From a virus, in IMG/VR virus record IMGVR_UViG_3300029094_000045: a stretch of 64,000 nt of DNA; one strand, given 5' to 3'. The notes beneath the pieces were generated by a model, which saw only the letters and a list, made by a program, of their open reading frames with translations, searched no databases and was not told where the DNA came from. The position numbers and the translations under genes were made by a program. Below are positions 29,282-48,351 of the stretch, one piece after another. Position 1 is the stretch's first letter. The number at the start of each line of letters is the position of its first letter.

Positions 29282-29423
29282 GTGTGTAGGGTTTCCGCAT
29301 TTTTCCTTACATAACAAACAACTTAGAAACGCCTCCTTTCATTGTGCTGCTTATCACAATCTTTCGATTTCTAAGTTGTCGTGGCTGAAAACGCCGAGCG
29401 GGTACGATAATCCCGTTTTATAT

Positions 29424-29464
29424 GAGGTCAATGATTACTTCTGGGTTTGATTCCCGGAGACCTC
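29424..29464 (+). other. tRNA mini-helix (acceptor stem plus T arm only)
   Basis: gaggtca-(10 nt)-ctggg-TTTGATT-cccgg-agacctc: 6 of 7 acceptor pairs and a 5-bp T stem. At 41 nt it is too short for a tRNA. It sits just 5' of the tmRNA-like gene. Confidence 0.3.
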
Positions 29465-29471
29465 TCTATAT

Positions 29472-29855
29472 GGGCCCGAAAGGTTTTCGACAGGGCTAAG
29501 AAAAAATTACAATTCGCAGGTCGGCCATCACCTTACGAGGCAAAAACAAATAAACGCTAACAACAACAGTTATCGTTGCGCGGCTTGATGCCGTGCCCAA
29601 AACAGCATCCTGATAGGCAGGTAAATGCTTGACGGTTCAAAGAATAAATCCCGGAACCCGATGTAAACGGTAAGAAACACTAGCGTTCTCGGACGTCAAA
29701 ACCGAGTGGTGGAGTGATGTAACAACCGTTACGTCCCTAGGTTTGCTGCGTCGGCGGCATGAATTCCTTTTCAAAATTCTAAATGCTGGCTATTGCGTAA
29801 GAAAATTGTAATTGAGTATTAGTTTTGGACGTGGGTTCGAATCCCACCGGGTCCA
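29472..29855 (+). ncRNA. ssrA: tmRNA (ssrA)-like gene, one-piece, with variant tag ANNNSYRCAA
   Basis: The 5' strand GGGCCCG (29472..29478) pairs perfectly with the 3' strand CGGGTCC (29848..29854) and includes a G3-U70 wobble, the AlaRS identity pair. The conserved 5' motif UUCGACAGGG matches E. coli GAUUCGACGGG. The 3' end GGACGUGGGUUCGAAUCCCACC matches E. coli GGACGCGGGUUCAACUCCCGCC. The tag frame GCU AAC AAC AAC AGU UAU CGU UGC GCG GCU UGA starts about 85 nt from the 5' end, as in E. coli, and encodes ANNNSYRCAA (E. coli ANDENYALAA). Total length ~384 nt. CCA is not encoded. Confidence 0.6.
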
Positions 29856-30264
29856 TAGCGGCGCAAGCCGCAAAGCTAGGTTCGATTCTGTCGGCGTGGA
29901 GTAGCACGTCGGTAGATGGGGTGGCGCAATTCCACCGTGGGTGATCATACTCCCCCTCTGACACATCCATAACGCTCTGACCGAAAATAATAACCATGAT
30001 GCAACGGGAGTAGCTACCCGCCACAGTGGATGTGCATGGCTCTATTATGTGTAGGCGAATATGGCACTGCCTGCGAAAGTGGCATAGATGCTCGGTGCCC
30101 AGAGCATCGGAGAGTGAATTTGAAAGGGCAGCCTTTGAGGATGGACACCATAAGAGACCTATTCGCTTATGTGTTGTATCCACTGACGCGACTGAGTATA
30201 GTGCAGACTTTGTAAGCCGCTTGCTTCTCGCTGATGTCGTTACATGGTTAAATCCTCCTCTCTG

Positions 30265-30342
30265 GGGCTAGTAGCTTAGTCTGGTTAAAGCCGGCAGCTC
30301 ATAACTGCTTGATCGGGGGTTCAAATCCCTCCTGGCCCACCA
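30265..30342 (+). tRNA. tRNA-Met (anticodon CAT), elongator-type, CCA encoded
   Basis: Acceptor gggctag/ctggccc; D stem gctt/aagc; anticodon stem ggcag/ctgct; loop cTCATAa; T arm ggggg-TTCAAAT-ccctc; A-CCA. The anticodon stem lacks the three G-C pairs of initiator tRNAs. Confidence 0.7.
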
Positions 30343-30636
30343 TTTTTAGTAACATTTTGAAAGAAGGTATGAATCATGGCAAATCCGAATATCAAAGAAA
30401 TCGTTGAATGGATGATTGAAAAAGCGAAAGATAGGGCTTCCGATAGCATCGCAGTCATTGATGAAGGAGAAATCGTTAAAGAGTTCGGAGTGGAGTCTGG
30501 ATGGCTTCAGAGCCATGGTCCAGAAATCTATCACGAATGCGATCGGCACTCAGAAGTTTTGGACTCTTTGATTTACACTGGAAATGATAGAGATTATTGG
30601 TCTATTCAGCTTACCATTAACAAGGAGTAAATCAAA

Positions 30637-31329
30637 ATGACTGATAAATATCTCAGTATCATCACGAACTTCGGGTGCCACTACAGCTGCCCTGAGTGTA
30701 TTGTCCGCAATAACAAGCTTAAGATGACACCGACAGTGGAGTATTCCTCTTACGCTCAGCTGTGGCATGTTCTTCATAACGAATGCAATGATTGCGATTG
30801 GGTGTCTGTTTCTGGTGGTGGCGATCCATTGTATCACTGGTGGGAACATCAGGCATGGTGGTTCGGATTCTTCGAGATGTGTTGGCGTTCTTTTCGCAAG
30901 ATTGAGCTGCATACCAGTTACTTTGATGTAGAAAATAATCACGAGATTATGTTGTTTCCGTTTGATAAATTCGACCGTGTTGTCTACCATGTTCACGGGC
31001 TGGATGATCTTGATGAGATTCGTCGTCGAGGCAATGAAATCGTCCGCGTAGTCTTTGTTGTTGATGACGATATGACTGAGGACGAAATCAATGGAATCGC
31101 TGATAATGTAGAAGCGTCAGACCAAATTGACGAGCTTTCGTTCCGGCAGCGTGTGGACGATAACTACGAGGCAACTTATCATCTGCATGATTTCCTGAAG
31201 GCCGGTCATCAGAAACGCTGGTGGTACATTGAACAGTGTGATTACAATATCTACTATCATAACGGTAAGCTGTTCACGAAGTATACCGATATCTTTGATT
31301 CTGAGGCGGTAAGTTATGAAAAAACATAA
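30637..31329 (+). CDS. radical SAM enzyme (QueE-like or RNR-activase-like)
   Basis: N-terminal NFGCHYSCPECI matches CxxxCxxC, and VSGGGDPLYHWW matches the GGE/GGD SAM-binding motif. GCxYSCxxC resembles B. subtilis QueE AGCDYSCSWC. 230 aa with no SPASM-type C-terminal cysteine cluster. Confidence 0.55.
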   Translation: MTDKYLSIITNFGCHYSCPECIVRNNKLKMTPTVEYSSYAQLWHVLHNECNDCDWVSVSGGGDPLYHWWEHQAWWFGFFEMCWRSFRKIELHTSYFDVENNHEIMLFPFDKFDRVVYHVHGLDDLDEIRRRGNEIVRVVFVVDDDMTEDEINGIADNVEASDQIDELSFRQRVDDNYEATYHLHDFLKAGHQKRWWYIEQCDYNIYYHNGKLFTKYTDIFDSEAVSYEKT

Positions 31330-31552
31330 AGATTTATTGCTGGCAGCTTGCGCATCGGCTGTTTCGTTTTTGAGTCTCAATGCCATTTTTGAGAAACTTC
31401 TACGGCACATCTCGCTTGTTCAAATGGCAACAGGAAGTATAAGTTCTCTTTACGGACGTGTCAGCGAGGCGGCTCTTTCGGTATCTGTAGCTCTGTCACT
31501 TGCGATTGGAGCTGTAGTATATATTCTGTTCAAAAATTAAAAGGAGGAACGA

Positions 31553-32464
31553 ATGAAGAATTTCAAAAAGATTTTCGTGGTTTCGTGTGCAATCGTGATG
31601 GCGCTGACCTTTACGGGGTGTACCAAGAAAGAGGTGTATACAATCGAACCTCATGAAACCGCATTTCTGATTTCACTCTCTGAGGGCGGGGAAAATCAGG
31701 CGTCTTTTGAGAGTGAGGCAATGCTCGCCGAGGCAAAGGTGGCAGCCAAGCAGGTATACATTACTTACTCGAAGCGGCATCTGTCACCGACTGACATCCT
31801 TGGTACTTGGGTTCCGGACAACATGTTGGTCATCGTTAATAGAACTCCTGTTACTCGTGAATGGTCCGAGGGCAAGGATAGTGGCACCAGCACTGTCAAT
31901 CAGTCCATCTCTGCCGAAAGCAAGGAGTCTATTGGCTTCTCCGTCGGCATGAACTGCTCTGCTCAGATCTACACTGAAAACGATGCAGTCAAGTTCCTGT
32001 ATTCCTACAACAACAAGCAGCTCTCCGAGATTATGGATACTGAAATCCGTGCGCGTGTAGAAGCTGACTTTGTTGAAAAGTGCGCCAAGTACACCATGAA
32101 TGAGATCCTTGAGAAGAAGGCCGAGATCATGGAGTATGTCCGCAAGGATGTGACTGAGTATTTTGCAGAGCGCGGTATCACGATTACGGTCCTTGGTATG
32201 AAGGATGGCATTGAGTACGACGATGCGTCTGTTCAGGCTGCTATTAACAAGTCCTTTGTGGCCGAGCGCAATGACGAGGCGCAGGAGATTGAGAATCAGA
32301 CCAAGATTTCCAAGGCGAACGCAGAAGCCGAGGCGAATAAAATCATCTCTGAGTCTCTAACTGACCGGCTGATTCAGCAGCAGATGTATGAAAAGTGGGA
32401 CGGTAAGCTTCCGACTTATGTTGGCGGCGATACCAGCGTCCCTGTACTGAACGATATGAAGTAA
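31553..32464 (+). CDS. SPFH (band-7/HflC-like) domain lipoprotein
   Basis: Signal peptide with lipobox ...ALTFTGC; the C-terminal half AEAEANKIISESLTDRLIQQQMYEKWDGKLPTYV is a typical SPFH/band-7 Ala/Glu-rich helix. Confidence 0.5.
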   Translation: MKNFKKIFVVSCAIVMALTFTGCTKKEVYTIEPHETAFLISLSEGGENQASFESEAMLAEAKVAAKQVYITYSKRHLSPTDILGTWVPDNMLVIVNRTPVTREWSEGKDSGTSTVNQSISAESKESIGFSVGMNCSAQIYTENDAVKFLYSYNNKQLSEIMDTEIRARVEADFVEKCAKYTMNEILEKKAEIMEYVRKDVTEYFAERGITITVLGMKDGIEYDDASVQAAINKSFVAERNDEAQEIENQTKISKANAEAEANKIISESLTDRLIQQQMYEKWDGKLPTYVGGDTSVPVLNDMK

Positions 32465-32504
32465 CCTGTGTAAGCAGTGGCGGCTCGGAAAGACGAGCAT
32501 ATAT

Positions 32505-32587
32505 GTTTCGGTGCTGGAATCGGCAGACAGGGGAGTCTCAAAAACTTCTGCGCAAGCATGTGGGTTCAAGTCCCATCCGAAACACCA
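32505..32587 (+). tRNA. tRNA-Leu (anticodon CAA), type II, CCA encoded
   Basis: Acceptor gtttcgg/ccgaaac; anticodon stem ggagt/acttc; loop cTCAAAa; long variable arm; T arm tggg-TTCAAGT-ccca; A-CCA. Confidence 0.65.
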
Positions 32588-32717
32588 GGGCGGACGTTTC
32601 ACCGCCTCTTTTCATACATCTCCTTTCCCTCACAGATGCTTAGTGGTTCATGGGTTCCAGACATGAATCACCGTGACTGAACAAGTCGTAGCAGGTACGC
32701 AATCCTGCTCTTGATAA

Positions 32718-32802
32718 GCCATAGTGGTGGAACTGACATACACTTCCGTTTTAGGGGCGGACGCCGCAAGGATTGAGGGTTTGAATCCCTCCTATGGCAC
32801 CA
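32718..32802 (+). tRNA. tRNA-Leu (anticodon TAG, reads CUA/CUG), type II, CCA encoded
   Basis: Acceptor gccatag/ctatggc; anticodon stem tccgt/gcgga; loop tTTAGGg; 13-nt variable arm; T arm gaggg-TTTGAAT-ccctc; A-CCA. The anticodon is 5'-UAG-3', not the amber-suppressor CUA. Confidence 0.6.
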
Positions 32803-32958
32803 ATCTCGTATGGGTAGGATCTTTAGCGGTCAGATCCGGCCGCGCCTGTGCGAGATACCACCCCGAAAGGGGAAGTTATCCATGATGTCCTTTCTACGCC
32901 CGCTATTCTCGGCTCGCTCGAAAGAGTGCAGCGTGCCTTTGTAAGCCGAGTATCTTAT

Positions 32959-33031
32959 GCAGCCGTAGTGTTAGTGGTTAGCACACCTGCTTCCCAAGCA
33001 GAGAGGGCGAGTTCGAATCTCGTTGGCTGCT
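32959..33031 (+). tRNA. tRNA-Gly (anticodon CCC)
   Basis: Acceptor gcagccg/tggctgc; D stem gtgt/gcac; anticodon stem cctgc/gcaga; loop tTCCCAa; T arm gcgag-TTCGAAT-ctcgt; CCA not encoded. Confidence 0.6.
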
Positions 33032-33207
33032 CTAGAGCTCCTGTGTTTGCGTTGCCCAGCTGTTAGTAATTAGTGTGTGTTGTTATGGTTCATAAAACCT
33101 CCTTTCCGCTTGGCGATATAGGAACTCATTTACCTCTTTTCTTCCTTATTATTCCCGGCTCCATGGCGCATGCTGTGGCAATAAGACGTAGTAAGCCGGG
33201 TTCTTAT

Positions 33208-33279
33208 GCAGCGGTCGTATAACGGCTAGTACATCGTCCTTCCAAGTCGATGGCGTGGGTTCGACTCCCATTCGCTGCT
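33208..33279 (+). tRNA. tRNA-Gly (anticodon TCC)
   Basis: Acceptor gcagcgg/tcgctgc; D stem gtat/gtac; loop cTTCCAa; T arm gtggg-TTCGACT-cccat. Its upstream flank (gtaagccgRg...cttatgcagc) is duplicated with the CCC gene, so this is a tandem duplication that has diverged at the anticodon. Confidence 0.6.
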
Positions 33280-33455
33280 CTACAGGTACTACACCTGAAG
33301 GGGTATGGCAAGATATTTAGCGGGTATACACGTTAAATAAGTCTACTGTATGAGATAAAAGATAGAAACCATAGGAGTGGCTTCCTAATGGGACAGGATG
33401 TGTGGGTTGGCTGCCCTGAGATGAGTCTGATAACCTGTATAAAACAGACTACCGT

Positions 33456-33501
33456 GGGATAACTCGGTGTTGAAGATTGAGTTCAATTCTCAATCATCCC
33501 A
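33456..33501 (+). other. second tRNA mini-helix (acceptor-like stem plus 7-bp T hairpin)
   Basis: gggataa-(12 nt)-gattgag-TTCAATT-ctcaatc-atccc-a; no D or anticodon arms. Confidence 0.25.
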
Positions 33502-33748
33502 ATTCCACCGCGAGGTGGAAGACAGCTTTGCCCATTAGGTCTTTAACAAAATGGGGAATAGGTACATGGTGGTAAAAGGACGATCAAATAATAGCCATGA
33601 CTTCTTTGCTTGACGCCATAAGACTCGGATAGAATGGTCCGATGGGAAGTTGTCCTGCTTGGAGAATCGGGAGTGCAGGTGTACCTAATTTTATATGTAT
33701 ACAAATTTATTTCATATATTAGGAGATGCTGAATTATGGGAGGTTAAT

Positions 33749-34222
33749 ATGATAATTAAAGAAACACCAGAATATAACGTATACCAAAACAAGGATGGTC
33801 GAACAAGAGTTTACATAAAGTCAACACAAAAAATTATGTCATACCCTAAATTTATCATGGAACAAAAACTTGGCAGGTCTCTATTGGCAGATGAAGAGGT
33901 TCATCATATTGACGAGGATTTCACAAATAATGATCCTAGCAATTTGATTGTTTTAGCAAAAGATAAACATCTTGCTATTCATTTGAATGAAAAAACAAAA
34001 TATTACGATAAAATGATGACGTGTCCTATATGCGGAAAAAATTTTTTGTGGACAGCAAAATCACAATCTACATTTTACAGGACAAAAAATCGTAGAATGA
34101 AAAGAAATAAAACCAATACTGTAAATGACAGTCCGTTTTGTTCAAGAGAATGCGCTGGACACTATTCTCAAGAGCAAAAGATTCGCTACCATGGCGAAAA
34201 TGGCAGTACGCTTCGGTCTTAA
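33749..34222 (+). CDS. HNH homing endonuclease with a C-terminal zinc ribbon; its 3' end overlaps the tRNA-Leu(TAA) gene
   Basis: EEVHHIDEDFTNNDPSNLIVLAKDKHLAIH is an HNH motif, followed by CPICGKN...CSRECAGH. Start assigned to the ATG at 33749 after GGAGGT. The TAA stop lies inside the tRNA anticodon loop. Confidence 0.55.
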   Translation: MIIKETPEYNVYQNKDGRTRVYIKSTQKIMSYPKFIMEQKLGRSLLADEEVHHIDEDFTNNDPSNLIVLAKDKHLAIHLNEKTKYYDKMMTCPICGKNFLWTAKSQSTFYRTKNRRMKRNKTNTVNDSPFCSRECAGHYSQEQKIRYHGENGSTLRS

Positions 34223-34270
34223 AAACCGATGTCGAGAGGCGTGCGGGTTCAAGTCCCGCTGGTAGCACCA
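34185..34270 (+). tRNA. tRNA-Leu (anticodon TAA), type II, CCA encoded
   Basis: Acceptor gctacca/tggtagc; D stem gcg/cgc with a 12-nt loop; anticodon stem tcggt/accga; loop cTTAAAa; 13-nt variable arm; T arm gcggg-TTCAAGT-cccgc; A-CCA. Confidence 0.65.
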
Positions 34271-35228: not shown

Positions 35229-35633
35229 ATGGGAGGTAAGACCAGTCGCGATAGTCGCGAAAGGTACAATAAAAAAACATACGATCGAATCAACCTGATG
35301 ATTAGGAAAGATTCGCCGATCAACAAAGATTGTATCGCAAAGGAAGCGCAACGTGAAGGGAAGAGCTTGACAGGTTATATCCTTGATGCTGTTTGTGATC
35401 ACATCGAAAGAGAGAAACAACTCGAAAATTTTCCTACTTGTCCAGAATCTAATCTTGAGCCTCCGAAGGTTTTTGATGAGAACGGTTTGAGATACGAACT
35501 CAACTATCGTGAAATGTGTTGTCTCCTTTATAAGGCATTGAGGGATGACCCAAATCTGACAGAAGGTATGAGAAAATCACTCATTGGAATTATTCGTCAG
35601 ATGCACGACACCTTGATTGACGTTTCGTGGTGA
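35229..35633 (+). CDS. ribbon-helix-helix (CopG/Arc-like) DNA-binding protein
   Basis: N-terminal SRERYNKKTYDRINLMIRKD...KSLTGYILDAV has the RHH pattern. Confidence 0.35.
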   Translation: MGGKTSRDSRERYNKKTYDRINLMIRKDSPINKDCIAKEAQREGKSLTGYILDAVCDHIEREKQLENFPTCPESNLEPPKVFDENGLRYELNYREMCCLLYKALRDDPNLTEGMRKSLIGIIRQMHDTLIDVSW

Positions 35634-35893
35634 GCCCAATGGAAAGAAAGTTCAAATATGGAGACATTGTGGTACTCGATGGAGACATTGTCCACGAGGA
35701 AGACACTAATCACAATATCTCGGGTAGAGTGGTTGGATATTCTTTTAATCCATTCGAAAGTTGTCCCACCGTAGAAGTATTTACTCCATTTAAGTTTGGA
35801 GAGAAAAGACTTTCTACAGTAGATTTCCTTGGTGACGATTGGTGGAGACTAGTCAAAGAACCGACCGAGTGCTACTGCGAATCATTGCTTTAA
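35627..35893 (+). CDS. ECxCxSLL tail-family protein (ends EPTECYCESLL)
   Basis: 88 aa; KYGDIVVLDGDIVHEE resembles the PGD-V-x-R-DL start of the tandem family. Confidence 0.5.
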   Translation: MVSPMERKFKYGDIVVLDGDIVHEEDTNHNISGRVVGYSFNPFESCPTVEVFTPFKFGEKRLSTVDFLGDDWWRLVKEPTECYCESLL

Positions 35894-36141
35894 TTTTCGC
35901 CCAACAAAGTCACTTTTCAATATCTGAACCAAATAATGGAATAGAAAGGAGGTTTATAAGATGCAAATCAAGTATGTTGATGGCCATTATGAAATCGTGT
36001 CGGCGGATAATGGCCAGTTTATTCAGTCGGCCGACACGTGGGACGAAGCTCTGAATGATATGAAGGAGCTATTACAAACAAGGTGAAACGGGCACACGGC
36101 TCGTTTACATAAAACTTTTTAATTAAAAAGGAGTAACAACT

Positions 36142-36567
36142 ATGAAGGCAACTGTTAAGTACAATTCTCTGTTCATCACCAGCGCATACGACATTGAGAC
36201 CCTGAAGAAGGTGGCCAAGTTCCGCAAGGAGGCTCTGACTCTGTACAAGGGCGAAGGCAAGGATAAGACTCCTGTGTGCAGCATCGCTGTCAGTAAGACC
36301 GCCGTTGCTAACAACCTGGGCATCACTTTCGCCAAGGACTCTGCTACCGAGCCGAAGCTCGCCACCATGAGCATTGACCTGCCCGATGATGCAAACACTA
36401 CCGAGAAGATCAACGCTTTCGTTCGTGACAAGCTGGGCCTGACCATTGTCAACTGCATCAAGATCGAGGAGCAGATCGCCGCTGCTCTGACCGAGATCGC
36501 TGGTGACGAGGCCGCTATGAACGCCGTCATCACTATCGAGAATGAGCCCGAGCACGCCGCCGAGTAA
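36142..36567 (+). CDS. hypothetical protein, first gene of the Ubl/JAB/E1 cassette
   Basis: 141 aa, with a strong GGAG RBS. Confidence 0.4.
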   Translation: MKATVKYNSLFITSAYDIETLKKVAKFRKEALTLYKGEGKDKTPVCSIAVSKTAVANNLGITFAKDSATEPKLATMSIDLPDDANTTEKINAFVRDKLGLTIVNCIKIEEQIAAALTEIAGDEAAMNAVITIENEPEHAAE

Positions 36568-36706
36568 GAGCTCCGCTGAGTAAGCGTTAAGCGCCGCTAT
36601 GGTTCCACGCCGGATGTTCCAGAGCAATACGTCCGGCATTCGTTAAGATGATTCGTCAAATGACGTTTCTACAATAATTTTTCAAATTGAAGAGGAGATA
36701 CATAAT

Positions 36707-36943
36707 ATGCTGCAGATTACTGTGGGTACCAACACCAATCGTAAGGTCGTCATGATTCCTGAGGATTACACCCTGCGTCAGTGCCTTGAGGAGAATGGCG
36801 TCAACTACTCCGCTGCCCAGACTTCTCTGGATGGTTGCGTCCTTCAGCCTGGAGATATGGACAAGACCTTCGCTGAGATGGGCATCACCGAGAAAGCTTA
36901 TCTGGTTTCCGTCCAGAAGATGGATAACGCTCTGGCCGCCTAA
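36707..36943 (+). CDS. small ubiquitin-like (beta-grasp) candidate protein ending ...NALAA
   Basis: 78 aa. MLQITVGTNTNRKVVMIPEDYTLRQCLEENGV...LDGCVLQPGDMDKTFAEMGITEKAYLVSVQK has the same strand/helix spacing as ubiquitin and ThiS/MoaD. It ends in Ala-Ala, not Gly-Gly. The fold is inferred from pattern only. Confidence 0.35.
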   Translation: MLQITVGTNTNRKVVMIPEDYTLRQCLEENGVNYSAAQTSLDGCVLQPGDMDKTFAEMGITEKAYLVSVQKMDNALAA

Positions 36944-37097
36944 TTCTGGGCGAATTTAAAATCCGAATGTAAATCTGTTTTTGGTTACAACAGATAAATA
37001 GCATTGCAGCCGCTGGCAGGCCGGTTAAAGTCTGCCTTATATATGTCCAGTATCTGGGCTTGATAATGCAATCACAAATTTTAAGGAGGAAGTTTAT

Positions 37098-38573
37098 ATG
37101 GCGTTCTCTGGTATTAAAACCAAGCTTGGTTCGCCCGAGTGTGAAGAATATTTCAACTCGATTGTTTACCGAAATGACTTCAAGGATGAAGACAATACCA
37201 TTGTGACGATTCTTCGTGCGATGATGAACGAGAAGCGGCTGGCAACTTTTAATGCAAAACCTGACGTGAAGGGCAAGATGCAGGTCCAGACTATCAACAA
37301 GGAAATTCGCTTTACGGGCGAGACTGCAAAAATTGACGCTGGCTACTATGGTGGCGCACATGGCCCTTTCAGTCAGGCAATTATCGGCCTCTGGTTGGTC
37401 TTCATTCCGAACAAAAATGCTTCGGACTACATCAAACAGGTCAAGGAATTCGACGAAGACTATAAGAAGCTTGGTTGGTCTCGTCTGGAAGATGTCTCTC
37501 TCTATCTGGATCGTAGCGGTGAGATTCTGGCGTATCAGAATGAAAAGAAGCAGGCCACAATTCTGTTTGCGCCGACGGCAAAGCGGATTCAGACCATGCA
37601 GATGGCGGCGAGTTGTATTTCTCGAATCTTTCCGTGGGCGTTCAAGGATTGTTCGCTGTCTGAGGACGAAATTGCATTCCTGAAACTGTTGAGTGAGCAG
37701 AAGTATACGGAGTTTAACGCAGCTATGGAAAGAAGCTACGCTGCGTACAACTTCTATGTTAAAAAGCTCCAGACTATTCTGCATGGGTTCTGTGACCAGA
37801 ATTATTCTCGCATGATCAAGAATCAGGAAGAGCGGGTTCGTCGTGCAGAGCGGACTGTTGATGACTATTATCGCAACGTAAGAAGCGCTCAGGACAGCCT
37901 CGAAGAAGAGCAAGGGAAGCTTCTGAGCCTGAGAAATCGAGCTTGTAACGGCGGAGAAGATGAAAAGGAGCTGATTGATTTCTTCTCTTCGAATAAGTCA
38001 ATCACTGTTCTCGGTAAATCCGGACGAGATCTCCGTCTTGGTGTGAATTGTTACCTCAATGACTTCAACGAAGATGTCTTCAAGCAGTATGTTGAGAAAC
38101 AGGATAGGGTGTCCAGTTACATCTATAGCGCAAGCCCTTATGGTCTGGAACTGACGAAGAAGTTATTCCTCGCTATTTGGAAGGAGCATCGCTTCAACTT
38201 GAGAGTTTATTGCGAATGGATTCTGTATGACGATTGCAATGTTGAAGCGGTTTCGCAGTCCAATATGGGAGGTCGTGACGACCTGATGGAAGACCGTATT
38301 CCTCAGCCTCATATCGATGATTACCAGTGCTTCAGAGGCTACACCGGCATTCTGAACGACCTTGCACGTTCTCGTGATTATATCGGAATCATGAGTACAT
38401 TGTTGAGTTCTTCCTCTTCTATCAATTGGACCGATTCTACAGTTGTTTCCAAGCTGATGAAACGGTTGTTTGAAACCAATAAGGATACGAAGTGTCTTGA
38501 GGATAAGGATGGCAACCATTATACCGTGGCAGAGGTCGTTAAAATTCTTGAAGACGAGGCAAAGGCGGCGTAA
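37098..38573 (+). CDS. 491-aa protein of unknown function between the Ubl-like and JAB genes (candidate E2-like or adaptor component)
   Basis: Co-directional and tightly spaced within the cassette. No recognisable motif. Confidence 0.4.
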   Translation: MAFSGIKTKLGSPECEEYFNSIVYRNDFKDEDNTIVTILRAMMNEKRLATFNAKPDVKGKMQVQTINKEIRFTGETAKIDAGYYGGAHGPFSQAIIGLWLVFIPNKNASDYIKQVKEFDEDYKKLGWSRLEDVSLYLDRSGEILAYQNEKKQATILFAPTAKRIQTMQMAASCISRIFPWAFKDCSLSEDEIAFLKLLSEQKYTEFNAAMERSYAAYNFYVKKLQTILHGFCDQNYSRMIKNQEERVRRAERTVDDYYRNVRSAQDSLEEEQGKLLSLRNRACNGGEDEKELIDFFSSNKSITVLGKSGRDLRLGVNCYLNDFNEDVFKQYVEKQDRVSSYIYSASPYGLELTKKLFLAIWKEHRFNLRVYCEWILYDDCNVEAVSQSNMGGRDDLMEDRIPQPHIDDYQCFRGYTGILNDLARSRDYIGIMSTLLSSSSSINWTDSTVVSKLMKRLFETNKDTKCLEDKDGNHYTVAEVVKILEDEAKAA

Positions 38574-38587
38574 AGGAGGTTTGATTT

Positions 38588-39499
38588 ATGCAGCCCATTA
38601 AAATGACTGACGAAATTATTCGCGATGTTATGCAGGAGTTCTACAGTCAGGCTTCTGTTCTCGGTAATCTCCAGACGGATAAATTTTCTTTCAATAAGAG
38701 CTTCTCTAAGCCAGCTAAAGACGCCGTTGAGGTGAATTTCACGCTAGAAGCTTACCATGAAATGTGTGCGCTGATTGACCATTTTTCGACTGAAGTTGCG
38801 TGGCATGGCCTGGTGAAGCGCCTTGATAAGACGCATTTCCAGGTCACAAAAATCCTGATTTATCCTCAGAAGGTGACTGGTGCCACCGTAAATACTGATC
38901 AAGAGGAGTATACCAAGTGGCTTTATGCTCTCAAAGATGAAGAGTTTAATGCAGTTCGTTTTCAGGGACATAGTCATGTAAATATGGCTACTAATCCTAG
39001 CGGTGTTGATATGCAGAATCAGTGGGATATGATCAATCAGCTCAATTCTACTGATTACTATATCTTTATGATTTGGAACAAGCGCCGTGAATACAATGTT
39101 CGCGTAATTGATATGGCTGACAATGTTATCTACAGCGGCAGCGATGTCAAGGTGACTATTGGAGCTCTTGATATGAAAGGGTTTCTCGAAGAGGCAGAAG
39201 CGCTCGTCAAAAAGCCGACACCTGTGTACAACTATGGTACCACCTACGGATCAAACGCAAGAACTTATCCGGGAGGCTCATTCGTTGGTACGACTAGCAC
39301 CGCAACCACAAAGTCGGCAGAAAAGACAGAAACGGAAGCATCGAACCCGGCGCTGAAGACTGTCACCGGTGCTGCAGCTCCCAAGGTGAATAAGGAGAAT
39401 GAGTCTAATCTCATGGGGTACTACAAGAAAAATCCGAACGAGTTGTTGGCCAATTGGAATTCTAGTTGTCTACCTTATGAGGATGCTCTGTCGAATTAA
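38588..39499 (+). CDS. JAB/MPN+ (JAMM) metalloprotease domain protein
   Basis: Exact JAMM signature FQGHSHVNMATNPSGVDMQN (HxHx7Sx2D), with upstream Glu candidates. Confidence 0.65.
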   Translation: MQPIKMTDEIIRDVMQEFYSQASVLGNLQTDKFSFNKSFSKPAKDAVEVNFTLEAYHEMCALIDHFSTEVAWHGLVKRLDKTHFQVTKILIYPQKVTGATVNTDQEEYTKWLYALKDEEFNAVRFQGHSHVNMATNPSGVDMQNQWDMINQLNSTDYYIFMIWNKRREYNVRVIDMADNVIYSGSDVKVTIGALDMKGFLEEAEALVKKPTPVYNYGTTYGSNARTYPGGSFVGTTSTATTKSAEKTETEASNPALKTVTGAAAPKVNKENESNLMGYYKKNPNELLANWNSSCLPYEDALSN

Positions 39500-39516
39500 G
39501 AAAGGAAAATGCACAA

Positions 39517-40197
39517 ATGGATTTGAGTAAGATTGAGATGATTTTTGACCCCGCATCTGTTAAGGGGCGCATTCATATCATCGGCTGTGGTTCGGTCGGT
39601 TCTACTGTGGCTGAACTGTTGGCACGATATGGTTTGACCAAATTCACTCTGTGGGACATGGACTTTGTTGAACCGAAGAATATCGTCAATCAGATGTTCT
39701 TCCAGCAGGATATCGCTCATCCCAAGGTTGAGGCTGTGGGCAACATCCTGTGTAATGTGAATCCTGATATCAAAGAGGACCTGGTTCTGATGCCCAATGG
39801 TTGGCAGGGCGAAACTGTTAAGGGTTACGTGTTCTTGGCGGTGGACAATATCGAGATTCGCCAGCAGTTCTTGGAGAAGAACAAGTACAACATCGATTTA
39901 CTCGGGGTGTTCGACATTCGGACGGGTCTCTATGATGCGCAGTGTTGGTCGGCCGACTGGAAGGATCGTAAGCAGATTGAAAACCTAAAGCGTTCCATGG
40001 CATTCACTCATGAAGAGGCCAAGGCGGCTACGCCGGTATCTGCTTGTGGCGTCGTTCAGGGCGTTGCTCCGACCGTTCGTTTCATCTGCTGTCTGGCAGT
40101 TACGAACTTCATCAATTTCGCGGAAGGCAAGCCGCTGAAGAAGCAGATCGTTGCAACCCCGTTTATTCTGGGTGAAGAGAGCGTCATGGCGTTCTGA
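39517..40197 (+). CDS. E1-like adenylyltransferase of the ThiF/MoeB/UBA family
   Basis: IHIIGCGSVGS (GxGxxG Rossmann); WDMDFVEPKNIVNQMF (D-D-VE-SNL-RQ region); HPKVEAVGNILCNVNPDI; VFLAVDNIEIRQ. Collinear with ThiF/MoeB. 226 aa, with no C-terminal CxxC or rhodanese domain. Confidence 0.7.
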   Translation: MDLSKIEMIFDPASVKGRIHIIGCGSVGSTVAELLARYGLTKFTLWDMDFVEPKNIVNQMFFQQDIAHPKVEAVGNILCNVNPDIKEDLVLMPNGWQGETVKGYVFLAVDNIEIRQQFLEKNKYNIDLLGVFDIRTGLYDAQCWSADWKDRKQIENLKRSMAFTHEEAKAATPVSACGVVQGVAPTVRFICCLAVTNFINFAEGKPLKKQIVATPFILGEESVMAF

Positions 40198-40218
40198 TAA
40201 AATCGCAAATAAATAATC

Positions 40219-40476
40219 GTGATGAATAGTTGCTCTTTTATAAGCAATGCACTCAGGTTAAACCGAGTGTGACGAATTGTCAGGACGAGGTACCCCAGAA
40301 GGGAGGGCACGTGCGCGTGCCATGACGCTCGTCACCTGGTGAATTACGAGGCCACCTCGAAAATGCGAACCAAATACAACGATGAGACGTAGCAGCAAAC
40401 GCGGCCGTGATCTAACGTGCCGGCTAACAAGGCTAACAGAGCTCAGCGGATGCAGGAACCAACCTGTTTAGATCAC
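40219..40476 (+). ncRNA. conserved structured non-coding element, copy B, directly upstream of the RT gene
   Basis: Homologous blocks with copy A. Stem cactc/gagtg at 40250..40269. Internal palindrome ggcacgtgcgcgtgcc. Ends ~30 nt before the RT start codon. Confidence 0.4.
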
Positions 40477-40505
40477 GATTTTTTAAATTACATAAGGAGA
40501 AATAT

Positions 40506-41738
40506 ATGTACATCACATATTGGAATCCGCCTAATACACGGCAGATTACTTTTGATGAAATCATCGCAGGCGTACAGAATGTTGAAGCGCTGCATTATGG
40601 CGGCAGCACCACCTCGACGATTACGGTGTGTCGTAATGACCTTACTCCGCGCCTGCAGAAAATCACCAATATCCCAGATATGATCGCAAAACTTACGGAG
40701 TTTAATCAGAAATATGCAGGACTCGAAGCGTGCGACCTCGCTGCTCATTATGAACATTTTGAGATTCCTAAGAAGTCCGGCGGCTGGCGTCCTATCGATG
40801 CTCCGGATAAGGAATTGTCTGATGCTCTGGTTGAGCTGCGCGAATTACTTCACAGCTTCATGATCGCAGACTATCACACAAATGCTTTTGCTTATATTCC
40901 GAATCGTAGTTTTATCGACGCAGTCCGCAAACATCAGGCTGGTCACATTAAAACGAAAAAGAATGAAGAAACCGGAATACAGACGACAGTGACTTTTGAA
41001 AATCACTGGGCAGTGAAGTTTGACTTGCATGGATTCTTTCCGAGCACAACGCCGGATTTTCTTCTTGGGATGTTGAGCATTATTTATCCGTTCGCTCTGA
41101 TTATGAAGGATGAACGGGGGCACGAACAGCTTGCCAACGCCTTAAAACTTTGTTTCCTCCACGGTGGTTTGCCGCAGGGGACGCCTATCAGTCCATGGCT
41201 TACCAATGTTATGATGATTCCATTTGATCATCTTATCACGCGCAAGCTGTGTTACGGCTATAAGGCAAAAGACGGTATCGAACGTGAATTTACCTATACC
41301 CGTTACGCTGACGATATGATGTTTAGTTGTTATCACAGTTTTGACCCGATGGAGATCCAGCAAATCGTCATCGATGGTTTGAACTTCATCCATGCACCAT
41401 TTACTTTAAATGAAGCAAAAACTCATTACGGCAACCGCCATTCCAGTAAAAACTGGTGCCTTGGTTTGATGTGGAACAAGGATAACCAGATCACTGTTGG
41501 ATGGCGAAATCTGAAGATGTTTCGGTCTGCCATGAAAAACTACATTGATGCGAAAAAGCGTGGCGAAACGTGGGAGCTTGAAGATCTTCAGTCGTTTATG
41601 GGCAAGCTTAATTACTATCATATGGTCGAACCCGATGTAATTGATGATTTGGTTCATCGTTACAATGAAAAATTTGGTGTTGATGTGATGGCTATGCTCA
41701 AAGACGATCTTCGTCTTAAAGATGGCGAAGCCGCGTAA
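40506..41738 (+). CDS. reverse transcriptase of retron/group-II type
   Basis: RT motifs in order: IPKKSGGWRPIDAP (1/2), FDLHGFFPS (A), GLPQGTPISPWLTNVMM (B'), YTRYADDMMFS (C, YxDD), then an LG region. QGxxxSP plus RYADD is retron/group II-like rather than DGR-like (IGxxxSQ). Confidence 0.7.
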   Translation: MYITYWNPPNTRQITFDEIIAGVQNVEALHYGGSTTSTITVCRNDLTPRLQKITNIPDMIAKLTEFNQKYAGLEACDLAAHYEHFEIPKKSGGWRPIDAPDKELSDALVELRELLHSFMIADYHTNAFAYIPNRSFIDAVRKHQAGHIKTKKNEETGIQTTVTFENHWAVKFDLHGFFPSTTPDFLLGMLSIIYPFALIMKDERGHEQLANALKLCFLHGGLPQGTPISPWLTNVMMIPFDHLITRKLCYGYKAKDGIEREFTYTRYADDMMFSCYHSFDPMEIQQIVIDGLNFIHAPFTLNEAKTHYGNRHSSKNWCLGLMWNKDNQITVGWRNLKMFRSAMKNYIDAKKRGETWELEDLQSFMGKLNYYHMVEPDVIDDLVHRYNEKFGVDVMAMLKDDLRLKDGEAA

Positions 41739-42893
41739 GGAGAATATGATGATTAAGCAGTATAAGAATGTCCTTGATGGTATCACGATGGAAGAATTCA
41801 TGGATGCTATTAAAAACGAAAAGAATGTTACAGCGAGAACGGTGTCTGCAATCTTATTTTCGATGATTGATGATCGTGTTCAGGAGGCCATCGATACGGC
41901 CAAAGAAAACATTCCAGACATTCTGATGGCAACGAAAGCACCTCCAGTGGTGGATGATTTCACTGAAGGATACGAGCTGGATGAAATTCGTGGCATCTGG
42001 CGTGTCGTGGACTCTACATGGTATCGGAATAAGAAATTCTATCTGATGAAGGCAGAACAAGATCCCGATTACTGTGGACCTATCGCGGTGGACGAGAACG
42101 GAAAGCTTGTTGCGGAAGAACTGTGCGACGGATTCGATTGCGACTTTGAAGATGCCGCAGACGAATATTTTGACGAAAACAAATTTAAAGGTTTCGGCCT
42201 TATCGGAGAGGAGGATATGTACTAATGGTTGAGCTTATGTGTCGTGATGGCAAAATCTCTCAGAGCGACCTCGAAAAACTAGCAGATACGATTTATTATT
42301 CTACCGGTATCGAGGTCAACGTGATTGCGGAACAGGACCGACGAGCCATGGTGTTCTGGGGGCCGGAAGATGTAAAGGGGATTATTGAGTCCTCGCACAT
42401 CCAGTCTATTGACCCGGACAACACGAGTATCTGTGACACAATCGTCGCTACGGCAGAGCCTAAGATTCATCAGGCGATGCTGGAGGCCGGTAATGATGTT
42501 CTGGTGGATGAAGTGTACGAGCTGGCCGAGTCGTTAGGAGAACATTTCGACGACTCAGATGTCGAGTTGGGTGATTCTTTATACGACGATTTTGAAGTTT
42601 CTTCCATGAAATAAAACAACGTAGATAAAAATCATTTTGTATATCACTCTATAAGAGCGAGCATTACACCTAAGGTGGATGTTTAGAAGAATACTAAGGA
42701 CCGGCCGCTGCGCTCTGATCAATCCCATCGTCGCGCAGCTTGGCCTCGAAACAAATCCTACGTCGAGTGCAATTTCAACTGCTCTCGATCCAATGAAATC
42801 GCTTCGCTCAGATATTGGATCGCTCGCATTGGAAATTTCCCTCGATAAACGGAGCTACGGATTTTAGAAAATGATTTTTGAAAGGATATAAAA

Positions 42894-43163
42894 ATGGAGT
42901 CGATAATGTATAAGCCGGGTGATAGAGTTACGATTCGTTCGGATTTGGAAGAGTACGAATGTTACTGTATGTTGTCTGGCCCCAAAAAAGAGAAAGGAAT
43001 GTTCTGCACCGTGCCGAGCATGGTTGCACAGGCCGGGAAAGTACTTACAATCGAAAAAATTCTAGAAGACGGAAGAGGTTATCAGCTTAAAGGATGTAAT
43101 CTCGGTTGGACGGATTCTATGTTTGAGTCAGCAAATGAATGTATTTGCGATTCGCTGCTGTGA
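42894..43163 (+). CDS. tandem-family paralog 1 (PGDRVxIRxDL...WTDxMFE...ECICDSLL)
   Basis: 89 aa. It carries the N-terminal domain shared by the 11 tandem paralogs and the family's C-terminal tail. Confidence 0.55.
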   Translation: MESIMYKPGDRVTIRSDLEEYECYCMLSGPKKEKGMFCTVPSMVAQAGKVLTIEKILEDGRGYQLKGCNLGWTDSMFESANECICDSLL

Positions 43164-43172
43164 GGTATTGAG

Positions 43173-43442
43173 ATGAAATATTTCCACGATATTGGTGATG
43201 CGGTTGTCGTAAAATCCGATCTTCATACTGGTATTGATTATTACATGAAGTCTGGTCCGGAAACTCCAATATATAATAATGTCACCGAGGAAATGAAAAA
43301 GTATGCTGGTAAAATTGTTCACATTGCGGACCACATAAACGGGCAGTATTTGATTAAAGAAGACGATTGTGAATGGATATGGACAGATGACATGTTCGAG
43401 AATGTTTCGGATGAGGAATGTTTTTGTGTGAGCCTGTTATGA
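43173..43442 (+). CDS. tandem-family paralog 2 (ends EECFCVSLL)
   Basis: Carries the shared N-domain and tail. Confidence 0.55.
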   Translation: MKYFHDIGDAVVVKSDLHTGIDYYMKSGPETPIYNNVTEEMKKYAGKIVHIADHINGQYLIKEDDCEWIWTDDMFENVSDEECFCVSLL

Positions 43443-43460
43443 TAGAAAGGGTGAGATAAA

Positions 43461-44285
43461 ATGGCCGAAGCTGTTAAAAGGAAAAAATATGAAAAGTTGG
43501 TCCAATTCCCCAAAGTCTCTGATAGCACTCACTTCACCATGAGTGAAGAAGAACTTCAGAAGATGATTCGGGATATTGCGGCTGCGGCTCAGAAGTCTAG
43601 AAAGCGTAAACCTAAACCTACATATAGTCTCTATACGAAGGATGGACGCAGAAAGCCCACGCCAGCCGATCCGATTCGTTCGAAAGAAGATTTCTGGAAA
43701 CTGGCTGATTATTTGGGTTCTACTGGAGATCCTAAATTCCAGCTGCGGAATAAGACGATTTTTATTTTTGGCTGTAGTATCGGCGTTCGCTGCGGCGATT
43801 TGTTGAACCTAAAAACAGGAGATGTTTATGAGGCGAATGGTTCGGTGAAAGAACATCTCGAACTAATGGAAGAAAAAACGCGCAAAATCAACGTTTGTAA
43901 AATTCCCAAAATGGCCGTGGATGTTCTGGAACAGTATCGTGATGAACAGAAATTCTCTATCGATCAGCAGAATTATCTATTCCGCAGCCGTAAAAATGGT
44001 TCTCTAAATGTGCGCAGTTTCTATCACATCTTGAAGAACGCAGGCAAAGTATGCGGGCTGGATATTGACCTGTCTACTCATACGATGCGTAAAACTTATG
44101 CAATGGCAGCTCTTCAAACAGCAGATGGAACAGAGGCGTCTGGCGATACGTTGGAGTTGCTTCAGGTGAAATTCAAACACAGTGATAAGCGCGTTACTAT
44201 GCGATACATTAAGGCGGATCAGGATAAAATCGATAAGATGTCCAATCGCGTTTCAGAATGGTTTGAGGATGGAGGAACTAAATGA
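43461..44285 (+). CDS. tyrosine recombinase (integrase-family catalytic domain only), embedded in the paralog array
   Basis: Box I GVRCGDLLNLK; box II LSTHTMRKTYA (HxxR); catalytic Tyr in KRVTMRYIK. 274 aa with no N-terminal arm-binding domain. Its stop overlaps the start of paralog 3. Confidence 0.6.
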   Translation: MAEAVKRKKYEKLVQFPKVSDSTHFTMSEEELQKMIRDIAAAAQKSRKRKPKPTYSLYTKDGRRKPTPADPIRSKEDFWKLADYLGSTGDPKFQLRNKTIFIFGCSIGVRCGDLLNLKTGDVYEANGSVKEHLELMEEKTRKINVCKIPKMAVDVLEQYRDEQKFSIDQQNYLFRSRKNGSLNVRSFYHILKNAGKVCGLDIDLSTHTMRKTYAMAALQTADGTEASGDTLELLQVKFKHSDKRVTMRYIKADQDKIDKMSNRVSEWFEDGGTK

Positions 44286-44551
44286 CGGATTATTTATATC
44301 ATCCCGGCGATAGGGTTTATGTTCGACCTGATCTTACGGATACTGAAGAGTATAAAATGTTGTCTGGGAAAAGTGAAGGCGAGTCTTGGGGAATCTACTC
44401 TTGGATGAAGAACTACGCAGGAAAAGAGATTGTTATTCTAAAAATTGAATTAGCCCGTGGCGTTTACACAGCACAAGGAATTAATGGCTGCATTTGGTCT
44501 GATGAAATGTTTGAGCCTCTAAACGAATGTTTCTGCGGCTCGTTATTATGA
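44282..44551 (+). CDS. tandem-family paralog 3 (ends NECFCGSLL)
   Basis: Carries the shared N-domain and tail. Confidence 0.55.
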   Translation: MTDYLYHPGDRVYVRPDLTDTEEYKMLSGKSEGESWGIYSWMKNYAGKEIVILKIELARGVYTAQGINGCIWSDEMFEPLNECFCGSLL

Positions 44552-44561
44552 GGACCTGTAA

Positions 44562-44843
44562 ATGAAGAACACCAAAAAATATATGTATCAACCCGGAGAC
44601 ATTGTTATTGTTCGAAAGGATTTAGATAAATATAAAAGCTACAAAATGTTTGCTGGCCCATATAAAGATAAAACATGGGGCATTCATCCGGATATGTGCC
44701 TTATGAGGGGACAAGCGGTTCATATTTCTGGGATTCATGAATATGGTGCTTATTTGATTTCGGAAACTGATGAATTTGTTTGGACAGATGAGATGTTTTC
44801 TGGATTAGCATACAATGAATGTTGTTGTAATTCGCTACTATAA
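44562..44843 (+). CDS. tandem-family paralog 4 (ends NECCCNSLL)
   Basis: Carries the shared N-domain and tail. Confidence 0.55.
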   Translation: MKNTKKYMYQPGDIVIVRKDLDKYKSYKMFAGPYKDKTWGIHPDMCLMRGQAVHISGIHEYGAYLISETDEFVWTDEMFSGLAYNECCCNSLL

Positions 44844-44867
44844 AATTAAACGACGGGGGAGATAGAA

Positions 44868-45143
44868 ATGGCATCGAGGTATTATCGATATAAAAACGGA
44901 GAAGAGGTTATTGTTCGTGCTGATTTAGATTATAATACTCGTTATTATATGCGTTCTGGTTATCGAGCTGACGAACAGTATACAATGCTTAGCTATGGCC
45001 AATCTCAGAAATTAGGAAAACCTGTACATATCAAAGACAAACGAGGTGGGCGATACATTATTGAAGAAGACTACGGCGGTTCTGCTTGGACTGACGATAT
45101 GTTTGAGTCTTCGAATGAATGTTGTTGCAGTTCTTTGCTGTGA
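44868..45143 (+). CDS. tandem-family paralog 5 (ends NECCCSSLL)
   Basis: Carries the shared N-domain and tail. Confidence 0.55.
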   Translation: MASRYYRYKNGEEVIVRADLDYNTRYYMRSGYRADEQYTMLSYGQSQKLGKPVHIKDKRGGRYIIEEDYGGSAWTDDMFESSNECCCSSLL

Positions 45144-45151
45144 GGTGTGAA

Positions 45152-45445
45152 ATGACAAAAGAATATCTTTATAACGTCGGAGATGTTGTAAGAATCCGCG
45201 AGGGGCTTGATCAGAATGAGTCTTATCGTATGCAGTCCGGCCCTTCGGATGGCTATAATCCCGGAATTAATAAATCTATGACAAGGCGCGGCGGAGAAGT
45301 TCATATGATACTGGGTTATGCCGCCTTGGGTTGTTATCATATCGACGATAACCCTAACGCAAAAGATTCTCATGGAAATTGGAGTTGGGCCGATGAAATG
45401 TTAGAACCTGTAGAGAATGGGTGCTACTGCGAGAGTTTGTTGTGA
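45152..45445 (+). CDS. tandem-family paralog 6 (ends NGCYCESLL)
   Basis: Start taken at the ATG of MTKEYLYN, after GAGGTG. Carries the shared N-domain and tail. Confidence 0.55.
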   Translation: MTKEYLYNVGDVVRIREGLDQNESYRMQSGPSDGYNPGINKSMTRRGGEVHMILGYAALGCYHIDDNPNAKDSHGNWSWADEMLEPVENGCYCESLL

Positions 45446-45453
45446 GGTGTGAT

Positions 45454-45723
45454 ATGAGTGAACTTCTATATAAGCTGGGTGACAAGGTTACAATCCGTTC
45501 TGATTTGAAAGAGGGCACACTGTATCCTGTTTTGTACGGACCAGCTGCTATCAAGAAAACTCTTTATTGCAGTCCTGGTATGGCAAAGCTTAGAGGCGAG
45601 ACTTTTGAAATCGACCGGTATACCTTCGATGGAAAGTTTTACAGATTGAAGGGAGTCGATTGGAACTGGACAGAGTCTGTGTTTGAAGATCCAAAAGAGT
45701 GCTTCTGTGAAAGTTTGTTATGA
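45454..45723 (+). CDS. tandem-family paralog 7 (ends KECFCESLL)
   Basis: Start taken at MSELLYKLGDKV. Carries the shared N-domain and tail. Confidence 0.55.
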   Translation: MSELLYKLGDKVTIRSDLKEGTLYPVLYGPAAIKKTLYCSPGMAKLRGETFEIDRYTFDGKFYRLKGVDWNWTESVFEDPKECFCESLL

Positions 45724-46003
45724 GGTATCAATGTGAAAGAGATATGGTGTGTTATTGAATCTAGCTCTGAAGGCGAGGTTTTTAGCCCCGATTTTTTCAA
45801 TTCAAAAGAAAAAGCAGTAGAATTTATCGAAGAAGAGACGAAAGAGTGTCTAGCTAATATGATGGATCTTCCAGAAGCTGGTAGGATGACGGATATCGTT
45901 GATGGAGATCCGATTGGTGAGGTGTGGACTGATAAATATAGTTGGGTATGGCATGGTTTTGAAGTTACTAAAGAAATTAAAAATATTTTAAAGGAGAATA
46001 ACA

Positions 46004-48342: not shown

Positions 48343-48351
48343 GGTGGTCTG

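Follow-up and report, generated by a model that had tools for sequence, protein, structure and literature searches.

The 64,000-nucleotide window analysed here, a stretch of viral DNA from IMG/VR record IMGVR_UViG_3300029094_000045, encodes a ubiquitin-like protein (Ubl), a JAMM/JAB metalloprotease, an E1-type (ubiquitin-activating type) enzyme and a predicted retron in one gene module. A preliminary description of this DNA had placed five co-directional genes at 36142-40197. Mechanical calling of open reading frames (ORFs) returned the same five, with the same coordinates and all on the plus strand. Judged from sequence, that description overlooked a sixth part: its cassette is half of a module, the other half of which is a retron consisting of a non-coding RNA (ncRNA) and a reverse transcriptase (RT). 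The features of the module are:

g1, 36142-36567, plus strand: 141 aa, first gene of the module, without a family match
g2, 36707-36943, plus strand: 78 aa, ubiquitin-like beta-grasp protein ending in MDNALAA
g3, 37098-38573, plus strand: 491 aa, three-part protein, candidate E2-like (ubiquitin-conjugating type) Ubl carrier
g4, 38588-39499, plus strand: 303 aa, JAMM/JAB metalloprotease
g5, 39517-40197, plus strand: 226 aa, minimal single-domain ThiF/E1-type adenylating enzyme
Retron-type ncRNA (msr-msd candidate), 40215-40480, plus strand: a1/a2 repeat, hairpins and hypervariable centre
g6, 40506-41738, plus strand: retron-type RT, 410 aa, YADD at residue 267

The genes g1 to g5 are separated by gaps of 139, 154, 14 and 17 nt, and 308 nt lie between the E1 (g5) and the RT (g6).

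Conservation of these genes as a unit was identified at all levels of relatedness sampled. Among 45 IMG/VR loci found with g3 as the seed, the order g1-g6 is kept in 43 and the other two are truncated. The order is likewise kept in relatives at 35-41% g3 identity, and members at about 20% g3 identity carry the same six-gene array amid unrelated flanking genes. Clustering of the ORFs of 80 loci identified only g1-g6 as common (in 59-80 loci each); of the flank families, the most frequent is found in 19. The window has the order g2-g3-g4-g5, as do 50 of the 51 loci with all six genes. The co-occurrence is close to obligate from either end. An RT lies within the flank of 63/66 loci seeded with the E1, and a search seeded with the RT returned 325 IMG/VR contigs; among the best 80 of these, all six genes are present in every contig with enough upstream sequence (78/78). 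Given this reciprocal conservation and the variable flanks, we regard retron and Ubl genes as parts of a single system.

When 185,579 species genomes were scanned with the alignment of the E1, 78 loci were obtained, all on contigs of gut, rumen or termite-gut assemblies. Nearly all are metagenome-assembled genomes (MAGs), and many of the contigs are 95-360 kb long; host assignments from MAG bins are unreliable for phage contigs. Ten ORFs were sampled from the flanks of five large contigs, and five of them, from four contigs, have Pfam matches (DNA ligase, RNA ligase, PNK-like kinase, HNH nuclease, radical-SAM enzyme and AAA ATPase). We read this gene set as phage-like. Overall, the module is present in >100 phage-like gut contigs with differing flanks. 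The phage-borne Ubl/JAMM/E1 set of the preliminary description is thus real, and its recurrence in so many independent contigs places it far beyond chance. Among 50,697 GenBank phage records no cultured phage carries the module; the sole match is MT835544, a human-faecal metagenomic phage record with 94.8% identity over the 5.8-kb cassette region (36000-41800 searched).

The RT encoded by g6 is of the retron type. It matches the NCBIfam retron St85 RT model (2.5e-41; 141.9 bits, where the cutoff is 235), PADLOC RT_II-A (4e-37) and Pfam RVT_1 (2.8e-15). A group II RT model is matched much more weakly than the retron models (only 1e-17). YADD is kept in 59/62 g6 sequences. We did not give g6 a retron type because its score is under the St85 family cutoff.

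Features of a retron ncRNA were identified in the gap between g5 and g6. The arm a1 (AATCGTGAT, 40215-40223) is repeated as a2 (ATCACGATT, 40472-40480), and the repeat closes about 266 nt. Directly after a1, at 40224, is a G that is the putative branching (priming) G; by hand count, 29 of the 37 repeats found have a G directly after a1. Exact repeats of this kind of at least 9 nt occur in 22/67 loci, compared with 3.8 (maximum 9) in shuffles, and the sequences of the arms vary from locus to locus. Alignment of the ncRNAs and folding with RNAalifold gave the a1/a2 helix and two conserved 5' hairpins, with 9/23 pairs compensated, and a hypervariable centre. The minimum free energy of the ncRNA gap has a z-score of -3.35. 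The ncRNA region has no match in Rfam.

Two other kinds of element with an RT were rejected. A diversity-generating retroelement would have a template/variable repeat pair (TR/VR) near its RT, and no direct repeat involves 40198-41738. A group II intron is not consistent with an RT model score far below those of the retron models, and no intron RNA was identified with Rfam.

Compared with retrons of the II-A/St85 kind, the module is alike in that its RT is matched best by retron models, the ncRNA directly precedes the RT gene, and the effector-like genes have the same orientation. The a1/a2 repeat, the G after a1, the 5' hairpins and the variable centre are also shared. However, the RT does not reach the curated St85 cutoff and cannot be placed in a defined type, and the ncRNA is long (about 265-320 nt). 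In addition, a five-gene Ubl module takes the place of a single toxin-like effector, and the module resides in large, lytic-looking phage genomes.

Other ORF families are found inside the module in some loci. One, between E1 and RT in 13 loci, has as its example member an RNase H (L055:7982-8437; Pfam 4e-47). This gene family may be a sign of branched msDNA (multicopy single-stranded DNA) production, although it is suggestive only. A second family between E1 and RT is present in 14 loci (median 268 aa; example L051:11361-12140), and another lies between JAB and E1 in 13 loci (median 172 aa; example L058:8386-8985). Neither of these two examples has a Pfam match.

The enzyme encoded by g5 matches Pfam ThiF (E=1.6e-19), and the ThiF/MoeB families are its best NCBIfam matches. 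Searched against the PDB, the family profile identified UBA5 (best, 3.6e-13), TcdA, Uba1, MccB, MoeB, ThiF and Cap2. The Rossmann GxGxxG is G23-C-G25-S-V-G28. Residues G23, G25, G28, D47, D49, N55, N58, Q59, K70, R135 and C177 are invariant in 77/77 sequences, and D110 is kept in 76/77. The earlier assignment of g5 as a ThiF/MoeB-type E1 with a GxGxxG and conserved blocks is therefore borne out by the Pfam match and by the invariant residues. Most MoeB/ThiF adenylation-site residues are present, as far as can be read from the sequence, and adenylation competence of g5 is likely but not certain. Cys177, the only conserved Cys of g5, sits immediately before a GV..AP segment; we take it to be the probable equivalent of ThiF C184 and MoeB C187.

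In its single adenylation domain g5 resembles the minimal E1s UBA5, MoeB and ThiF (about 230-300 aa, presumably homodimers), and it shares with them a conserved Cys near the crossover-loop position. Like these enzymes, g5 probably works as a homodimer. Unlike them, it has neither a UFM1-type nor a sulfur-pathway partner beside it.

The protein encoded by g4 has the catalytic set of a JAMM protease, with E69 upstream and then H128-S-H130-x7-S138-x2-D141. The exact HxHx7Sx2D signature had been noted before; to it E69 can be added, and all five residues (E69, H128, H130, S138 and D141) are invariant in 71/71 distinct g4 homologs. Matches to known families are weak: PADLOC JAB at 1.4e-4, and Prok-JAB in 6 of 18 members. 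A family profile made from 18 diverse homologs matches RPN11 across exactly the catalytic residues (E about 0.03). The JAMM/JAB domain spans approximately residues 50-200; a linker of low complexity comes next, and a short conserved motif closes the protein. In the C-terminal third of the gene (39200-39499), the linker after the JAMM domain is rich in Gly, Thr, Ser and Ala and of variable length. The terminal motif, NL..YY..NP..L...NSSC.PY, is kept in relatives down to 46% identity and is absent in locus L047.

Structure models were made with AlphaFold2 (AF2) from shallow input alignments. That of g2 (23 homologs) has a pLDDT (predicted local distance difference test) of 86.5 and the topology beta-beta-alpha-beta-beta ... 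beta. In a Foldseek search against the PDB, each of the top 50 matches is to ubiquitin, SUMO, ISG15 or another ubiquitin-like domain, with a probability of 1.0 over 68-78 columns (E about 2e-4 to 1e-3). The ubiquitin/ThiS-like pattern seen earlier in this 78-aa protein thus corresponds to a beta-grasp, the fold on which the preliminary description had made its reading depend.

The C-terminus of the Ubl has a defined pattern. In about 60 loci the core ends in ...V-V-K-A-D-[N/G]-A; in the window this is D73-N74-A75, followed by an L-A-A tail. About half of the Ubl ORFs terminate exactly at the core end (22 as ADNA alone), and many others have variable tails of 1-4 residues (A, AA, R, RV, AV, NN, LAA, VVM or GNDV). 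Only 2 of about 60 loci have a Ubl ending in GG. The significance that had been given to the -ALAA end of g2 is therefore lost: the conserved end is D-N-A, and LAA is one of many variable tails, including none. Four loci (L065, L098, L102 and L114) encode the Ubl and the g1 domain as one in-frame fusion, the sequence running ...KADNA, then A and g1. This fusion needs proteolytic release, and it is similar to eukaryotic ubiquitin-ribosomal protein precursors in that the Ubl is the N-terminal part of a fusion to a module protein. The pattern fits the signature of a Ubl that is cut to expose a defined C-terminal residue, here predicted to be Ala75, and is C-terminally activated. The JAMM site is invariant even in phages with a tailless Ubl, which argues for a second, deconjugating role of g4 besides trimming.

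The g1 family was found in 64 of about 80 loci and is the conserved first gene of the module. No match to g1 was identified in Pfam, NCBIfam, PHROG, PADLOC or the PDB.

The AF2 model of the 491-aa protein encoded by g3 (28 sequences, pLDDT 88.2) begins with a flavodoxin/MoaB-like alpha/beta domain, continues with a long coiled-coil helix (231-283) and ends in another alpha/beta domain. Foldseek against the PDB gave insignificant flavodoxin/MoaB similarity only, and no E2 match. At the sequence level, no E2 match was identified with Pfam (28 members) or with PDB profiles, whether the complete protein or its C-terminal domain was compared, and hhalign comparisons with UBE2D2 and with a plasmid E2/UBC protein were negative. 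Only H405 and C411 are invariant in all the alignments that were tried; D32, R47 and E191 are also kept in the 40-sequence A4 set and vary in the 66-sequence set. H405 and C411 belong to the motif P-[N/Q/H]-P-H-I-x4-C, which follows the last strands and precedes the helices, a placement that resembles, by analogy, the HPN...Cys site of an E2. We regard g3 as a predicted Cys-dependent enzyme in the E2 slot of the operon and a candidate E2-like Ubl carrier, its E2 fold being unproven. The set had earlier been called complete-looking, which is not supported for its E1 and E2: the large protein in the E2 position is a candidate E2, and the E1 is a minimal, single-domain one. An exhaustive profile search for the g3 family returned 1868 clusters at 50% identity with E<=1e-3, of which 671 are at <=1e-30. 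Almost all members among the 150 matches listed are 440-550 aa long.

Bil and CEHH/6C operons have the gene order Ubl-E2-DUB-E1, where DUB is a deubiquitinase, and their E1 has inactive and active adenylation domains, a mobile CYS domain and a structural zinc site (bioRxiv 10.1101/2023.09.26.559546). Among known systems the module most resembles these operons, with which it shares the gene order, yet by sequence it is not a member of them. The comparison with Bil-type systems made in the preliminary description holds for gene order, since g2-g3-g4-g5 corresponds to Ubl-X-JAB-E1, and fails for membership at the sequence level. Shared with BilABCD and CEHH/6C are a stand-alone beta-grasp Ubl with a C-terminus often masked by residues for JAB to remove, a JAMM protein whose catalytic site is complete, an E1 of the ThiF type and, encoded between Ubl and JAB, a protein that bears a Cys. 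In contrast, g5 is a single domain of 226 aa without the inactive adenylation domain, the helical CYS domain and the zinc site, and the three-part protein in the E2 slot cannot be shown to be UBC-like. The Ubl of the module ends in Ala (mostly D-N-A), not Gly. The module also has the extra conserved gene g1, is phage-encoded and comes with a retron.

Phage lambda offers an earlier case of a virus that encodes both a Ubl and a JAB protein: TAPI/TAPK combine the two in tail assembly (PMC1779556). Unlike the lambda proteins, the module has no tail-assembly context and no NlpC/P60 domain, and it has an E1. Given the presence of the E1, the released C-terminus of the Ubl is probably activated.

We propose that the six genes and the ncRNA are a discrete module of large, uncultivated gut phages and couple a Ubl activation and conjugation cascade to a retron, a reading that we favour at slightly better than even. 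As a combined statement it spans all biochemical steps, the coupling and the role, all of which we infer; what the sequences show are the folds and motifs, the pattern at the Ubl C-terminus, the RNA features of the retron and the co-occurrence of the genes. In this pathway g4 would trim the residues past K-A-D-[N/G]-A of g2 (LAA here, the whole g1 domain in the fusions), and would probably also reverse Ubl linkages. The exposed C-terminal Ala carboxylate would then be adenylated by g5, presumably as a homodimer, which may hold the Ubl on Cys177. Maturation of g2 by g4 and its activation at Ala75 by g5 are, given the motifs and the Ubl C-terminal pattern, the steps that we hold with good confidence. 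The Ubl could then be taken by g3 on Cys411, aided by His405, and passed to a target; carriage on Cys411 is a tentative proposal, to which we give just short of an even chance. Copying of part of the adjacent ncRNA into msDNA would be the task of g6, and the RT-msDNA may act on the Ubl cascade as a sensor, regulator or partner, in the way that it serves other retron effectors. The conservation of the module makes it probable that the retron is functionally integrated with the Ubl genes. The likely purpose would be phage-host or phage-phage conflict, for and against which we see the balance as even. The module could also be a new phage-run retron class in which msDNA directly controls the Ubl conjugation cascade, or is its acceptor. 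This is possible, and we lean somewhat against it.

Several observations weigh against coupling of such a cascade to a retron. The Arg of the N-x-x-R-Q motif is missing from g5, which has the invariant Gln59 instead, and g5 also has no N-terminal Arg finger and no Zn-binding CxxC pairs; the Gln for the motif Arg and the missing Zn site set it apart from UBA5, MoeB and ThiF. Because of these missing elements, its chemistry may differ. The C-terminal residue of the Ubl is Ala, not Gly. The connection between retron and Ubl genes is drawn from synteny, and synteny has exceptions: in three E1-seeded loci an RT is missing from the 7-9 kb of flank, about a third of loci carry additional genes between E1 and RT, and in locus L103 the RT lies between g4 and g5. 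More distant phage ThiF genes (crAss-like and Xanthomonas jumbo phages) have no adjoining RT, and no g1-g3 were detectable at those loci. The exceptions within the module could be explained if the retron and the Ubl/JAB/E1 cassette were two independent neighbours, side by side through shared phage lineage and without joint function, as all loci are from gut or rumen phage-like contigs, possibly of shared ancestry. We consider this unlikely, since the module genes are conserved and the flanking genes are not. The association also holds in both directions (63/66 and 78/78) and down to about 20% g3 identity, and no member of the RT clade without the cassette was identified among the best 80 of the 325 IMG/VR matches.

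The E1 and its partners could serve other chemistry. If the Ubl were a sulfur carrier, the E1 would make a Ubl thiocarboxylate and g3 Cys411 would be a persulfide relay, with sulfur passing to a nucleic acid or cofactor. The best NCBIfam matches of g5 and the invariant cysteines in both g5 and g3 are compatible with this, and the module can be likened to TtuB/TtuC, CysO/Mec+ and QbsE/QbsD, where JAMM also trims the carrier; such trimming of a carrier tail is known from the CysO and QbsE systems. However, no ThiG/H, MoaE, CysM, TtuA-type PP-loop or rhodanese gene or motif was identified in the module or conserved nearby, known carriers end in Gly-Gly (rare here, as described above), and the JAMM site is intact where the Ubl needs no trimming. 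The assignment to a known sulfur-transfer pathway, against which the preliminary description had weighed its reading, thus finds neither partner genes nor the expected C-terminus, and we consider a sulfur carrier quite improbable. Slightly less probable still is a non-protein acceptor, in which the E1 would activate the Ubl for attachment to msDNA, RNA or a nucleotide by MccB- or TcdA-like chemistry. Among solved structures, the nearest relatives of g5 include TcdA, whose substrate is a carboxylate carried on tRNA, and MccB, whose product is a peptide-nucleotide; UBA5 and Uba1, however, score as well as they do. The obligate linkage to an RT and ncRNA, and sometimes to RNase H, the atypical E1 active site (Gln59) and the Asn conserved beside the terminal Ala of the Ubl would be in keeping with such an acceptor; MccB, though, requires a terminal Asn, and the Ubl ends in Ala. 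The proposal is purely speculative, and we know of no precedent for a Ubl-msDNA adduct. Finally, a ThiF-family enzyme is a feature both of PRTRC-type (ParB-related, ThiF-related) cassettes and of type II CBASS (cyclic oligonucleotide-based antiphage signalling systems), in which Cap2 and Cap3 are regulators and Cap3 is a JAB-type protease. In the PRTRC example examined, a "protein C" of about 75 aa lies beside a protein of about 150 aa, and PADLOC E1-E2 (Cap2-type) models match g5, in its Rossmann segment only. Both are nevertheless very improbable. PRTRC membership was rejected at the levels of sequence and architecture: no NCBIfam PRTRC model (TIGR03734-03742) matches g1-g4, PRTRC_ThiF scores 20.7 bits against a cutoff of 144.75, hhalign with PRTRC protein C and its neighbour gives a probability of <1%, and there is no ParB. 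Type II CBASS was rejected as well, as no nucleotidyltransferase (CD-NTase) or effector was identified and g5 is not fused to an E2.

Retrons and bacterial Ubl systems are both among the most active topics in phage-host conflict and have so far been seen as separate subjects; in the phages studied here they make up a single conserved module. In the literature searched for a retron combined with ThiF, JAB or ubiquitin-like systems, we found no description of this module. The module is abundant and virus-encoded (1868 g3 clusters, 325 IMG/VR contigs with the RT), and the very large g3 family, without annotation, now has a context. If the proposed coupling is true, it would represent a new retron effector logic and a testable case of a virus using ubiquitin-like tagging in bacteria. 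The 78-aa Ubl, 226-aa E1 and JAMM protease would also be a compact Ubl-activation set and a possible tagging tool. If msDNA controls or accepts the Ubl, reverse transcription would for the first time be connected with the ubiquitin-like tagging of proteins.

ThiF/JAB pairs may be a more general theme among phages. In the crAss-like phage cr106_1 (L048, MT774378), 3216-5648 encodes a longer ThiF protein with a possibly JAB-like protein upstream. The JAB-like match is weak (E 0.023 against a 126-ORF set), and the record annotates a metalloprotease domain. In Xanthomonas phage PhiXhv-15 (L049), at 5001-6560, a ThiF gene lies beside a 70-aa ORF that weakly resembles a Ubl.

The preliminary description had also connected the cassette with a 17-member family sharing a C-terminal tag. 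The family exists: 17 ORFs end in C-x-C-x-S-L-[LI], at 12130-14007 on the minus strand and at 35627-35893, 42894-45723 and 48067-49207 on the plus strand. The minus-strand members include unrelated proteins of 61-180 aa. Six plus-strand tag junctions (43134-48928) share the DNA motif AATGARTGY..TGCGA..CTGCTGTGAGGTG, which spans the stop codon and a GAGGTG that resembles, by eye, the ribosome-binding site of the next gene. The C-x-C-x-S-L-L tag is confined to close relatives (L046 and L052), and only 3 of 84 cassette-bearing loci scanned have any tag ORF, one of these being a lone minus-strand match. We rejected a link between tag and cassette, as the tag occurs in close relatives only, is found on unrelated proteins and has a DNA motif that overlaps the stop codon and ribosome-binding site. 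Instead of serving as a protein signal, the tag might mark a recombination site or the junction of a cassette. Among the tag-bearing ORFs lies a gene for a tyrosine recombinase (43461-44285).

A transfer-messenger RNA (tmRNA) is encoded at 29472-29858 on the plus strand (93.6 bits, with the unusual tag ANNNSYRCAA), within a cluster of seven tRNA genes (29204-34270). The bearing of its tag on the -ALAA end of the Ubl, put forward in the preliminary description, is not supported: the LAA tail is not conserved, and a link between the two was rejected on this ground.

The window itself is part of a large phage. It encodes seven tRNAs and the one tmRNA, and PHROG matches include a terminase fragment, PhoH, NAMPT, an anti-repressor and an exonuclease. 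Genes for nicotinamide phosphoribosyltransferase (PHROG 448, 1.7e-162) and a PhoH-like protein are located at 51765-53303 (plus strand) and 14626-15981 (minus strand); NAD-salvage or counter-defence functions are possible for these genes. The tRNA-Leu(taa) gene (34185-34270) is overlapped in its 5' part by a 175-aa ORF (33695-34270) with what looks, by eye, like an HNH motif. A Twister-P5 ribozyme match was identified at 22298-22376 on the plus strand (50.7 bits, E 1.3e-7, above the Rfam gathering score).

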